The notes under the pieces: generated by a model
Seen by the model: the letters and a program-made list of their open reading frames with translations, nothing else
Told to the model about the DNA's origin: nothing
The model's database searches: none
DNA from: Escherichia coli
Lineage (GTDB): Bacteria > Pseudomonadota > Gammaproteobacteria > Enterobacterales > Enterobacteriaceae
DNA: 64,000 nucleotides
NCBI RefSeq assembly: GCF_003334815.1
Contig: NZ_QOWO01000003.1
Direction: 5' to 3' (one strand)
Translations under genes and position numbers: made by a program
Shown here: positions 22,583-26,741 of the stretch, one piece after another
Numbering within the stretch: the stretch's first letter is position 1
How the letters are laid out: each line of letters opens with the position of its first letter

Positions 22583-22610
22583 TGCCGACGTTATGTCGGC
22601 ATTTTTTTAT
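22583..22610 (+). terminator. Rho-independent terminator downstream of pgi
   Basis: Hairpin TGCCGACGTTATGTCGGCA followed by TTTTTTTAT. Confidence 0.75.
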
Positions 22611-22916
22611 CAGATAAATCCCCTTGTCTGTGATTTAACGGAAATCATACCATGAGGTTAATCCTAAAATAGATTTTTAATCGTTGTTTATTTCGGAAAA
22701 TACGCAGATTAATTGCTTTTGTTTTTATTTTAAGTTTATGATTTTTATTGTTATTTAAATATAAGTTGAAACTTATATTTGATATTCATTCCAATTATCC
22801 TAAAACGCCATCGCTAATTCCCCGCGCCGTAATTCGCATGCTTTAGTTGTGTATACTCGATCCCGCCCGAAATGTTTTTGGGTAAATCTCCATTCATTCA
22901 ATGAAGGGAAATTGTT

Positions 22917-23159
22917 ATGAAAAAAGTTCTGTATGGCATTTTTGCCATATCTGCGCTTGCGGCGACTTCTGCGTGGGCTGCACCTGTACAGGTGGGCGAA
23001 GCGGCAGGGTCGGCAGCAACGTCGGTTTCGGCGGGGAGTTCCTCCGCGACCAGCGTCAGCACCGTAAGCTCGGCGGTGGGTGTCGCGCTTGCGGCAACCG
23101 GTGGCGGTGATGGTTCTAATACCGGGACCACCACAACCACGACCACCAGTACCCAGTAA
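22917..23159 (+). CDS. yjbE: Secreted Ser/Thr/Gly-rich small protein YjbE (80 aa)
   Basis: Signal peptide [21 protein letters not shown] followed by a low-complexity S/A/T/G-rich region ending in a poly-Thr run; first gene of yjbEFGH. Confidence 0.85.
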
Positions 23160-23272
23160 TAAAGTATGTATCCCCAAAATAATTCGAGTCATTGCATCTG
23201 TGGCTAGAAGTATGAAGGGATTAACCATAACCACACTCCGGTGTGGTTATTCTGCCCCTCTGGAGAAGAGTC

Positions 23273-23911
23273 GTGAAGCGACCTGCACTCATTCTTATCT
23301 GCCTGTTATTACAGGCCTGTTCAGCCACGACTAAAGAGCTGGGCAATTCACTGTGGGACAGTCTGTTCGGCACGCCAGGCGTACAGCTGACGGATGATGA
23401 TATTCAAAATATGCCCTACGCCAGCCAGTACATGCAGCTTAATGGCGGGCCGCAGTTATTTGTGGTGCTGGCCTTCGCTGAAGACGGACAACAAAAATGG
23501 GTCACTCAGGATCAGGCTACTCTCGTTACCCAACATGGCCGTCTGGTGAAGACTCTGCTCGGCGGCGACAACCTGATTGAAGTGAATAACCTTGCTGCCG
23601 ACCCGCTGATTAAACCCGCACAAATCGTTGATGGCGCAAGCTGGACGCGCACGATGGGCTGGACCGAGTACCAGCAGGTACGCTACGCCACCGCACGCTC
23701 AGTCTTCAAATGGGATGGCACCGATACCGTCAAAGTCGGCAGCGATGAAACCCCGGTTCGCGTGCTGGACGAAGAAGTCTCCACCGACCAGGCGCGCTGG
23801 CATAACCGCTATTGGATCGACAGCGAAGGGCAAATTCGCCAGTCGGAACAGTATCTCGGCGCGGATTATTTTCCGGTGAAAACCACTCTCATCAAGGCGG
23901 CAAAACAATGA
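23273..23911 (+). CDS. yjbF: Lipoprotein YjbF (212 aa)
   Basis: ORF 23243..23911; GTG at 23273 gives VKRPALILICLLLQACSATT (lipobox LLQAC); stop overlaps the yjbG start. Confidence 0.8.
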   Translation: MKRPALILICLLLQACSATTKELGNSLWDSLFGTPGVQLTDDDIQNMPYASQYMQLNGGPQLFVVLAFAEDGQQKWVTQDQATLVTQHGRLVKTLLGGDNLIEVNNLAADPLIKPAQIVDGASWTRTMGWTEYQQVRYATARSVFKWDGTDTVKVGSDETPVRVLDEEVSTDQARWHNRYWIDSEGQIRQSEQYLGADYFPVKTTLIKAAKQ

Positions 23912-24645
23912 TTAAACAAACTATTGTCGCGTTGCTTTTGAGTGTGGGAGCGTCATCGGTCTTCGCGGCAGGAACCGTCAAGGTGTTCAGCAATGGCAGC
24001 AGTGAGGCCAAAACGCTAACGGGCGCAGAGCATTTAATCGATCTGGTAGGCCAACCGCGGCTGGCAAACAGCTGGTGGCCCGGTGCGGTGATTAGCGAAG
24101 AGCTGGCAACGGCGGCAGCATTGCGTCAGCAGCAGGCGTTGCTGACACGGCTGGCAGAACAGGGCGCAGATTCCAGCGCCGACGATGCCGCTGCGATTAA
24201 CGCCTTACGCCAGCAAATTCAGGCGTTGAAAGTGACGGGCAGGCAAAAAATCAATCTTGATCCCGATATCGTCCGCGTTGCCGAACGCGGTAACCCGCCG
24301 TTGCAGGGCAACTACACGCTGTGGGTCGGACCACCGCCGTCCACGGTCACGTTGTTCGGGCTTATCAGCCGTCCTGGCAAGCAGCCATTCACTCCAGGTC
24401 GCGACGTGGCGAGCTATCTCTCTGACCAGAGCCTGCTCAGCGGTGCGGATCGCAGCTACGCGTGGGTGGTTTACCCGGACGGACGCACGCAAAAAGCGCC
24501 GGTGGCTTACTGGAACAAGCGTCACGTAGAGCCGATGCCCGGCAGCATTATTTATGTTGGCCTCGCGGACTCCGTCTGGAGTGAGACGCCTGATGCCCTT
24601 AACGCCGACATTCTTCAGACTCTGACGCAGCGGATACCTCAATAA
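23908..24645 (+). CDS. yjbG: Periplasmic protein YjbG (245 aa)
   Basis: ATG at 23908 gives [20 protein letters not shown] (signal peptide); translationally coupled to yjbF and yjbH. Confidence 0.8.
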
Positions 24646-26741
24646 TGAAAAAAAGACATCTGCTTAGCTTACTGGCGCTGGGCATTAGCACAGCTTGCTA
24701 CGGCGAAACATATCCTGCGCCCATTGGTCCGTCGCAGTCGGATTTCGGTGGCGTAGGATTATTACAAACGCCCACCGCGCGTATGGCACGGGAAGGGGAG
24801 TTGAGTCTGAACTATCGCGATAACGATCAGTACCGTTATTACTCAGCTTCAGTGCAACTCTTCCCGTGGCTGGAAACAACGCTGCGCTACACCGACGTGC
24901 GCACCCGGCAGTACAGCAGCGTCGAAGCGTTCTCTGGCGATCAAACGTATAAAGATAAAGCCTTCGATCTCAAACTGCGTTTGTGGGAAGAGAGTTACTG
25001 GCTGCCGCAAGTGGCGGTTGGTGCGCGGGATATCGGCGGTACGGGGCTGTTTGATGCGGAATATCTTGTTGCCAGCAAAGCCTGGGGGCCGTTCGATTTT
25101 ACGCTCGGCCTGGGCTGGGGATATTTGGGCACCAGCGGTAATGTGAAAAATCCGCTCTGTTCAGCCAGTGATAAATATTGCTATCGCGATAACAGCTACA
25201 AACAGGCGGGATCTATCGACGGTAGCCAGATGTTCCACGGTCCTGCCTCACTGTTTGGCGGCGTGGAATACCAGACGCCCTGGCAACCGCTGCGCCTGAA
25301 ACTGGAGTATGAAGGCAATAATTATCAGCAGGATTTTGCCGGGAAGCTGGAGCAAAAAAGTAAGTTTAACGTCGGTGCGATTTATCGCGTTACCGATTGG
25401 GCCGACGTTAACCTTAGCTATGAACGTGGCAACACCTTTATGTTTGGCGTTACGTTGCGCACCAACTTTAACGATCTGCGCCCGTCTTACAACGATAACG
25501 CCCGCCCGCAATATCAACCGCAGCCGCAGGATGCCATTTTGCAGCATTCGGTGGTGGCGAATCAGTTAACGCTGTTGAAATACAATGCCGGACTTGCCGA
25601 TCCACAGATCCAGGCGAAAGGCGATACGCTGTATGTTACCGGCGAGCAGGTGAAATATCGTGATTCGCGCGAAGGGATCATCCGTGCGAATCGGATCGTG
25701 ATGAACGATCTGCCGGATGGGATCAAAACGATCCGCATTACGGAAAATCGCCTTAACATGCCGCAGGTGACGACGGAAACCGATGTCGCCAGCCTGAAAA
25801 ATCATCTCGCCGGAGAGCCGTTGGGCCACGAAACGACGCTGGCGCAAAAACGCGTCGAGCCAGTGGTTCCGCAGTCCACCGAGCAGGGCTGGTATATCGA
25901 CAAATCACGCTTTGATTTCCATATCGATCCGGTGCTGAACCAGTCGGTCGGTGGCCCGGAAAACTTTTACATGTATCAGCTGGGCGTGATGGGAACGGCA
26001 GATTTGTGGCTGACGGACCATCTGCTGACCACCGGCAGCCTGTTTGCAAATCTTGCCAACAACTACGACAAGTTTAACTACACTAATCCTCCGCAGGACT
26101 CGCACTTACCGCGCGTGCGTACCCATGTGCGCGAGTATGTGCAGAACGATGTCTATGTGAATAACCTGCAAGCCAACTACTTCCAGCATCTGGGCAACGG
26201 CTTCTACGGTCAGGTCTACGGTGGTTATCTCGAAACCATGTTTGGCGGTGCGGGGGCAGAAGTGTTGTATCGCCCGCTGGACAGCAACTGGGCGTTTGGT
26301 CTGGATGCCAACTACGTTAAACAGCGCGACTGGCGTAGTGCAAAAGATATGATGAAATTCACCGACTACAGCGTGAAAACCGGACATCTGACCGCCTACT
26401 GGACGCCATCTTTCGCTCAGGATGTGTTAGTTAAAGCCAGCGTCGGGCAGTATCTGGCAGGGGATAAAGGCGGCACGCTGGAGATCGCCAAACGCTTTGA
26501 TAGCGGCGTGGTGGTGGGTGGCTATGCCACGATCACTAATGTTTCGAAAGAGGAGTACGGCGAAGGGGACTTCACCAAAGGCGTGTATGTCTCGGTACCG
26601 TTGGATCTCTTCTCGTCTGGCCCGACACGCAGCCGTGCGGCGATTGGCTGGACGCCGCTGACGCGTGACGGTGGTCAGCAACTTGGGCGTAAGTTCCAGT
26701 TGTATGACATGACCAGCGACCGTAGCGTCAATTTCCGCTAA
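24645..26741 (+). CDS. yjbH: Predicted outer-membrane protein YjbH (698 aa)
   Basis: Signal peptide and a Tyr/Gly-rich C-terminal region with alternating-residue beta-strand character; last gene of yjbEFGH. Confidence 0.88.

Follow-up and report, generated by a model that had tools for sequence, protein, structure and literature searches.

The yjbEFGH operon of Escherichia coli: a paralogue of gfcABCD, and a possible role for YjbE as exported partner of a proposed outer-membrane station

Modules of the gfcABCD and yjbEFGH type are among the most widespread outer-membrane systems of the Proteobacteria. They affect capsule formation, mucoidy, resistance to predators and to antimicrobial peptides, and virulence, and no component of the module has a proven molecular activity. 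In the gfcABCD system, GfcB and GfcC form a tight heterodimer (Kd ~100 nM) and the pair binds GfcD, an outer-membrane protein that is not lipidated; GfcB itself has a LolA-like fold (PMC8592465). In-frame deletion of gfcA, the small first gene, leads to loss of the capsule, and the defect is complemented in trans (PMC3853201). Here we analyse the yjbEFGH operon in a stretch of 64,000 nucleotides (nt) from the E. coli contig NZ_QOWO01000003.1, referred to below as the window. How polysaccharides are anchored at the cell surface is a long-standing question, for which yjbEFGH offers a promising test case: a conserved peptide architecture, signs of peptide export and a conserved terminator make of it a tractable problem rather than a surprise.

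The operon is already known and has been described, while its molecular mechanism and the role of YjbE remain unsolved. Its activators are RcsA-RcsB and osmotic or envelope stress, and the exopolysaccharide linked to it contains uronic acid and is otherwise undefined (PMC5461412, PMC3599342, PMC5105897). An earlier note on this DNA, made by a model from the letters alone, had named the operon, connected it with exopolysaccharide production and considered the mechanism not to be established, in agreement with the literature (PMC8592465, PMC11494523, PMC5461412). The key point that it left unmentioned is the homology to gfcABCD.

The yjbEFGH operon and its relation to gfcABCD

RefSeq annotation of identical DNA gives the gene order pgi, yjbE, yjbF, yjbG, yjbH, a gene for a small periplasmic protein, psiE and xylE. 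The names and coordinates that the note had assigned to the four yjb genes stand: the same four are present in RefSeq and each product matches a Pfam family, as follows.

22917-23159, plus strand: yjbE, an 80-residue precursor with a Sec signal peptide ending in AWA (Pfam YjbE, PF11106, 5.5e-33)
23273-23911, plus strand: yjbF, 212 residues, a predicted outer-membrane lipoprotein of the GfcB/YjbF family (Pfam PF11102, 8.6e-64)
23908-24645, plus strand: yjbG, 245 residues, a predicted periplasmic protein of the GfcC family (GfcC_N, 1e-49, and GfcC_C, 1e-42; PF20616 and PF06251)
24645-26741, plus strand: yjbH, 698 residues, an outer-membrane protein with two predicted barrels (Pfam YjbH, PF06082, 1e-270)

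NCBIfam returned no match for any of the four proteins. Of 5426 complete E. coli genomes, 5414 have a DNA match to the segment 22400-26900 that covers 80% or more of it. Translation of yjbF starts at a GTG codon with a GGAG Shine-Dalgarno sequence in front of it, and the lipobox reported by the note is present in YjbF as LLQA-C, with serine at position +2. YjbH is, as the note described it, rich in tyrosine and glycine (Gly 9.5%, Tyr 6.4%). At the yjbF/yjbG junction the stop and start codons overlap as ATGA, and at the yjbG/yjbH junction they have one base in common, TAATG; both arrangements had been seen by the note. Its further claim, that all four genes are translationally coupled, fails at the first junction, where yjbE and yjbF are separated by 113 nt that contain a hairpin.

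Sequence searches of the PDB matched YjbG to the GfcC structure 3P42 (2.2e-55) and YjbF to the YmcC/GfcB structure 2IN5 (3.3e-43), and gave no solved relative of YjbH. Compared with the gfc operon of E. albertii, the identities are 65% for YjbH and GfcD, 43% for YjbG and GfcC, 39% for YjbF and GfcB and 36% for YjbE and GfcA. We conclude from the Pfam and PDB matches and from these identities that yjbEFGH is a free-standing paralogue of one half, gfcABCD, of the group 4 capsule operon.

An AlphaFold2 model of YjbH, built on an alignment of 43 sequences, has a predicted local distance difference test score (pLDDT) of 88 and a predicted template modelling score of 0.87. It comprises 12 strands (residues 52-274), an alpha/beta domain (301-404) and a further 13 strands (423-669), in agreement with the published two-barrel model of GfcD (PMC11494523); GfcD and YjbH had both been predicted to be two-barrel proteins (PMC8346858). 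The N-terminal barrel has been called FapF-like and the C-terminal barrel PgaA-like, and export of an amyloid-forming peptide has been a matter of speculation (PMC9603273).

The C-terminal barrel of 13 strands predicted here for YjbH opens a possible, though on balance unlikely, alternative to the reading of YjbE as exported cargo that we develop below: YjbH would export a lipid-linked glycan, lipid A-core or another lipid, which would leave the C-terminal barrel laterally as in LptD, with YjbF and YjbG serving as shuttle or gate and YjbE as a non-travelling adaptor in the inner membrane, possibly specific to the type of polysaccharide. The corresponding barrel of GfcD has an open seam, and in molecular dynamics simulations the lipid A tails escape through this gap (PMC11494523); the LolA-like fold described for GfcB fits the same picture (PMC8592465), whose basis is nevertheless simulation only.

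YjbE-like peptides, the gap hairpin and the function of YjbFGH

Relatives of YjbH fall into 2661 clusters at 50% identity. We fetched 80 genomic loci for them, nearly all from Gammaproteobacteria. A YjbF-like gene precedes the YjbH homologue in 77 of these loci and a YjbG-like gene in 75, mostly with overlapping ends. The idea that Wza and Wzc always accompany the module was ruled out, since a Wza-like gene lies within 8 kb in only 20 of the 80 loci. Constant residence in lipopolysaccharide (LPS)-core clusters was ruled out likewise: in 15 loci, which belong to a few lineages (the Alteromonas clade, Shewanella and one Vibrio), the module is embedded in or adjacent to LPS-core genes such as coaD, the Kdo kinase gene kdkA, waaA and a heptosyltransferase gene. 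In most cases, then, the module stands on its own, and only now and then is it tied to an LPS or capsule locus. For lipid export, the 15 LPS-associated modules are a point in favour, but 60 of the 80 modules are without a Wza-like gene within 8 kb and most do not stand beside LPS genes.

The LPS-adjacent loci of the Alteromonas clade and Shewanella are L019, L022, L025, L029, L030, L032, L036, L042, L047, L060, L061, L063, L068 and L075, while L069 has waaA only. In the Alteromonas clade the module lies between radC and fpg; in Shewanella, waaA is on the far side of the module. A good many of the YjbH homologues have 930-1400 residues, with N-terminal or internal extensions, and natural fusions of a GfcC-like to a YjbH-like protein occur in Idiomarina, Pseudidiomarina and Aliidiomarina (L053, L064, L077, L078). 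Two of these loci, L077 and L078, are without a detectable small peptide gene.

YjbE had been described as a secreted protein of 80 residues and low complexity. It has that length and a signal peptide, and the 58 residues after position 22 include 13 Thr, 12 Ser, 10 Ala, 9 Gly and 7 Val, Ser, Thr, Ala and Gly together making up 76%. The chain can be divided into a region rich in Ser, Thr, Ala and Gly, a short Ala/Val/Gly core (AVGVALAA), the sequence GGGDGSN and a Thr-rich tail. Sequence searches found homologues of YjbE in only two of the 80 loci. That homologues of gfcBCD and yjbFGH are preceded by a small, hypervariable gene whose product has a signal peptide had been noted in a preprint (10.1101/391854). 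We sought such genes by composition, within 400 nt upstream of the yjbF homologue, requiring a signal-peptide-like start followed by at least 40% Ser, Thr, Gly and Ala. The filter was passed in 68 of 77 loci, compared with 19 of 1339 control windows, for which a somewhat stricter cut-off of 50% was used. With three further genes rescued by eye, the small gene is present in at least 71 of the 77 loci.

The peptides have a common architecture in which the signal peptide is followed by a Gly/Ala/Ser/Thr stretch, an uncharged core of Ala, Gly, Val and Ile, a patch rich in Asn and Asp, and a tail that is Thr-rich or of the TVTVT type. The number of Cys residues after the signal peptide is even (0, 2, 4 or 6) in all 69 of 69 peptides, and in the tail following the core acidic residues average 4.2 and basic ones 0.6. 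Together with the uniformly even Cys counts, this acidic tail argues that the C-terminal part of the peptide resides in an oxidising, non-cytoplasmic compartment. We infer that peptides of the YjbE type are exported and are not inner-membrane proteins of N-out/C-in topology, contrary to earlier predictions. The same two properties, the tail being nearly free of basic residues, speak against the cytoplasmic C-terminus of the lipid-export alternative, for which the hypervariability of the YjbE-like peptides has on the other side been read by others as serotype specificity (10.1101/391854).

Peptides of the Alteromonadales have in addition one to three copies of the motif C-x2-[GD][DE]-...-G-x-C. 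Those of Rheinheimera, Pseudidiomarina and an uncultured bacterium of the Alteromonadaceae (L034, L058, L071, L063) contain extreme linkers, of about 50 consecutive Asp, poly-Pro or (PE)n, along with one to three copies of the Cys-pair motif.

The gap between yjbE and yjbF has a fold z-score of -3.4 relative to shuffled sequences, and one hairpin dominates its structure.

23227-23250, plus strand: 10-bp hairpin ATAACCACAC-TCCG-GTGTGGTTAT in the 113-nt yjbE-yjbF gap, a terminator-like putative attenuator whose U-tract is degraded in E. coli

In related loci the small gene and the yjbF homologue never overlap, and a median of 88 nt lies between them. A gap hairpin of -12 kcal/mol or lower is found in 59 of 62 such loci, with a median z of -4.0 against dinucleotide shuffles, and behind it a T-run (at least four T within the next eight nt) in 50 of 62. 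By its form, the hairpin with its T-run is an intrinsic terminator. The E. coli stem ATAACCACAC...GTGTGGTTAT recurs in Pantoea and Acerihabitans and is there followed by a T-run; as the U-tract of E. coli is degraded by comparison, the terminator is in this species probably weakened or leaky. We did not meet the conserved gap hairpin in the literature searched, and a literature search for yjbE together with Term-seq data returned nothing useful. A small first gene, a terminator and then overlapping machinery genes form a layout that is found where a subunit or substrate must outnumber the machinery that assembles it. This layout supports, without proving, the view of YjbE as an abundant partner or cargo of YjbFGH. 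It also weighs against lipid export, since genes for subunits or substrates are more typically set off from the machinery genes by a terminator than are genes for adaptors.

Peptide composition and hairpin also bear on the proposal that YjbE forms a protein fibre or amyloid, as in the Fap or curli systems, being exported through the FapF-like N-terminal barrel to make a matrix of its own, with the effects on polysaccharide indirect. The YjbE-like peptides consist to 66% of Ala, Thr, Gly and Val and have beta-prone TVTVT tails, and the small gene may be highly expressed, judged from the terminator hairpin before the machinery genes. However, searches with the four Yjb proteins found no homologues of CsgG, CsgE, CsgF or FapA-E, the C-terminal barrel resembles those of the polysaccharide porins PelB, PgaA and BcsC, formation of a polysaccharide capsule depends on the paralogous gfc module (PMC3853201, PMC8592465), and fibres have never been reported. 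We regard this proposal as improbable.

Overall, we rate somewhat above even the chances of the following explanation. By homology to GfcB-GfcC-GfcD, YjbF, YjbG and YjbH would form an Rcs-induced station for translocation or insertion at the outer membrane, putting a polysaccharide-bearing molecule on the cell surface. YjbE would be the fourth, obligatory component, exported by Sec and probably fully translocated, and possibly made in excess of the machinery on account of the leaky terminator hairpin before yjbFGH. It would act as cargo or anchor, its Ala/Gly/Val core being shielded by the LolA-like YjbF and handed to YjbH and its Thr-rich tail reaching the surface, there to carry or bind polysaccharide. 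Loss of any component would disturb the envelope and trigger Rcs, giving rise to colanic-acid mucoidy. The small gene in at least 71 of 77 loci, the even Cys counts, the acidic tails, the hairpin and the published genetics, namely the gfcA deletion and the mutations in mucoid clones treated below, all support YjbE as an exported partner or cargo. What is shown are the identities, the predicted fold, the synteny and the hairpin and, in the paralogue, that the small gene is required and that the B, C and D proteins form a complex; that mature YjbE is exported, made in excess, passed to YjbF and YjbH and active at the surface is inferred. The suggestion of the earlier note that YjbFGH is a pathway dedicated to YjbE is strengthened by the small gene, the hairpin, the Cys counts and the tail, and is plausible; it is neither demonstrated nor new, speculation along these lines having been published (PMC8592465, PMC9603273).

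A more specific version can be offered only tentatively. Here the anionic YjbE-type peptides, possibly overproduced by way of the conserved attenuator, would be the real cargo of YjbFGH, ferried through the periplasm by YjbF and YjbG and inserted or threaded by YjbH, which might free the hydrophobic core of YjbE through the open seam of its 13-strand barrel; at the surface they would serve as the anchor or primer that holds capsule or exopolysaccharide. If this is true, a peptide-anchored capsule would be a new class, and the two-barrel outer-membrane protein would have a new use.

Several points weigh against YjbE as exported cargo or anchor. In nearly all of the peptides the 15-residue Kyte-Doolittle mean of the core is 2 or more (1.6 in E. 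coli YjbE), so that an inner-membrane helix is possible, and others have predicted such a helix for GfcA (10.1101/391854, PMC8592465); that the cores are hydrophobic enough for a membrane helix counts in favour of the lipid-export alternative. To ask whether YjbE is the missing fourteenth strand, we modelled YjbH (residues 30-698) fused through a 30-residue Gly/Ser linker to YjbE (22-80). In this AlphaFold2 model, for which 19 paired sequences were supplied, YjbE was left disordered (pLDDT ~20, compared with 70 overall), a result that is uninformative rather than negative. The E. coli hairpin is without a good U-tract, the tract reading TCTGCCCC, and the fold-changes of yjbE and yjbFGH under Rcs induction are alike (PMC3599342, PMC5105897), which implies substantial read-through in E. 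coli; an excess of YjbE is therefore not shown in this species. No experiment has shown YjbE leaving the cytoplasmic membrane, being glycosylated or touching YjbF, YjbG or YjbH. Lastly, the yjb polysaccharide has yet to be identified, and a glycosyltransferase gene is missing from the operon.

Published mutations can be read in another way. Among clones that had evolved under predation, candidate mutations in yjbE, yjbG or yjbH were seen in mucoid ones and in none of the non-mucoid (PMC8540638), and a yjbF::IS1 insertion merely enhanced the phenotype of another mutant (PMC8117528). Mutations in the operon are tied in both studies to overproduction of colanic acid and not to loss of polysaccharide, as would be expected if the Yjb complex exported nothing and instead stabilised or sensed the outer membrane when osmotic or Rcs stress sets in; the effects on exopolysaccharide would then be secondary to Rcs signalling. 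The yjb polysaccharide has, in keeping with this, never been chemically defined (PMC5461412), the operon is without synthesis genes, and Wza, Wzb and Wzc are absent from the window. We give such a maintenance role little credence, as two pore-forming barrels that resemble sugar porins make little sense unless some substrate is transported. Moreover, YjbG has the domains of GfcC, which has been described with Wza-like beta-grasp domains, and capsule or exopolysaccharide depends on the homologous modules of E. coli (gfc), Vibrio (wbf) and Aeromonas (PMC8592465). A literature search for yjbH together with enterobacterial common antigen returned nothing useful.

The promoter region and the flanks of the operon

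The features found at the edges of the operon are these.

22571-22720, minus strand: match to the Rfam model STnc430, an enterobacterial small RNA, full-length to the model (79 bits against a gathering score of 47)
22581-22603, no strand assigned: intrinsic terminator hairpin of pgi, probably bidirectional, with TTTTTAT behind a stem of 10 bp; it bounds the locus on the upstream side
22653-22666, no strand assigned: candidate RcsB or RcsAB box TGAGGTTAATCCTA, on weak evidence
22852-22857, plus strand: candidate -10 hexamer TATACT inside GTTGTGTATACTCGAT, a conserved block that E. coli and Enterobacter have in common, about 60 nt ahead of the yjbE ATG
26753-26780: probable terminator hairpin GGTGCCAG-(12 nt)-CTGGCACC, read directly from the sequence in the space that separates yjbH from the convergent gene for a small periplasmic protein

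The region 22600-22916 had been taken for a long AT-rich leader. Its AT-richness is evident, the G+C content of 22606-22800 being 24% compared with 50% in the whole window, but its transcription as a leader is unsupported: its first bases are the T-tail of the pgi terminator, STnc430 matches it on the opposite strand, and the TATACT hexamer lies only about 60 nt before the ATG. A promoter scan placed a sigma-70-like promoter on the minus strand at 22754..22727, just upstream of the 5' end of STnc430, and the RNA would end at the bidirectional pgi terminator. A literature search on STnc430 returned nothing useful.

The candidate box TGAGGTTAATCCTA is an exact minus-strand match to the lower-affinity RcsB box TN(G/A)GAN4(A/C)CTNA (PMC7913699); it agrees with the RcsAB consensus at 10 of 14 positions and is kept in Enterobacter in our alignment. 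Scans upstream of yjbE for the RcsAB consensus (up to three mismatches) and for the exact RcsB box gave no match, leaving 22653-22666 as the only, weak candidate. The sigma-70 consensus scan found no plus-strand promoter; that it missed TATACT is expected for an activator-dependent promoter. The RcsB-like box and the TATACT block suggest such a promoter, with a 5' untranslated region of about 50 nt, and the likely yjbE promoter would thus lie only about 60 nt before the gene.

Natural isolates carry IS1 or IS5 insertions in or beside the operon. In one of them, strain PM7 (L002, 523-1220), IS1 is located in the AT-rich pgi-yjbE spacer. The operon is also hit repeatedly in laboratory evolution (PMC8117528, PMC8540638), and the yjb locus looks like a frequent target of inactivation or rewiring.

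At the downstream end, the terminator scan passed over the hairpin at 26753-26780 because its loop is longer than 8 nt. Convergent to yjbH is an open reading frame of 92 codons (26788-27066, minus strand) whose product has a signal peptide and is annotated 'periplasmic protein'. It is adjoined by one of 47 codons (27067-27210, plus strand), a RefSeq 'hypothetical protein' that overlaps a repetitive extragenic palindromic (REP) element. REP-type repeats matching the Rfam family naRNA4 lie at 22435-22505, after pgi (79.5 bits, over threshold), and at 27109-27201, after the gene for the small periplasmic protein.

Comparison with known systems

Taken singly, the barrels of YjbH resemble several exporters and differ from each. 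The acidic oligosaccharide porins KdgM and NanC and the amyloid exporter FapF are 12-strand barrels with a sequence identity of only 12-14%, whereas YjbH adds a second barrel in the same chain, and no partner genes of FapF were found at yjb. PelB, PgaA, BcsC and LptD have 16-18 or 26 strands, compared with 13 and an unclosed seam in YjbH, which is also without tetratricopeptide repeats or a partner of the LptE type. A strand count of 13 is odd, and a lateral gate of the kind found in LptD-like exporters is a prediction only, resting on the GfcD simulations (PMC11494523). The CsgG-type lipoprotein channel of curli, with CsgE and CsgF, has no counterpart among the Yjb proteins. Nor does the operon belong with the outer-membrane polysaccharide export proteins of the Wza family, which are marked by a Poly_export domain and a C-terminal outer-membrane helix; the only domains that YjbG matches are those of GfcC.

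Pilin genes of chaperone-usher operons and the lantibiotic gene nisA are structural genes followed by a leaky terminator and then by machinery genes. The likeness of yjbEFGH to these operons, a hairpin after the first gene and overlapping machinery genes thereafter, is one of operon logic only, with no homology.

Closer are the orf1-wbfDCB module of Vibrio and the other gammaproteobacterial modules, of Vibrio, Photobacterium, Shewanella, Alteromonas and others, which have the small gene, the hairpin and the F-G-H layout in common with yjbEFGH. Modules of the Vibrio type have been linked to capsule or exopolysaccharide (PMC8592465). Their YjbH homologues are only 41-49% identical to YjbH and some stand beside wza and wzc (20 of the 80 loci), and the peptides of the Alteromonadales differ from YjbE in their extra Cys-pair motifs and in ending with TVPVTFTYAPTVQ.

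The closest described system is gfcABCD. Homologues of GfcE, Etp and Etk, which in the group 4 capsule operon gfcABCDE-etp-etk are the paralogues of Wza, Wzb and Wzc, do not occur in the window, so that yjbEFGH stands apart from that operon as a whole. It differs from gfcABCD itself in being under RcsAB control, with an undefined polysaccharide, and in the core of YjbE, which is much shorter than that of GfcA and has a Kyte-Doolittle mean of 1.6 as against 2.45. The two systems nevertheless have the same four families in the same order, and they agree in the overlaps at the B-C and C-D junctions, in the predicted two-barrel fold and, in gfcABCD (L006) as in yjbEFGH, in the hairpin behind the small gene.

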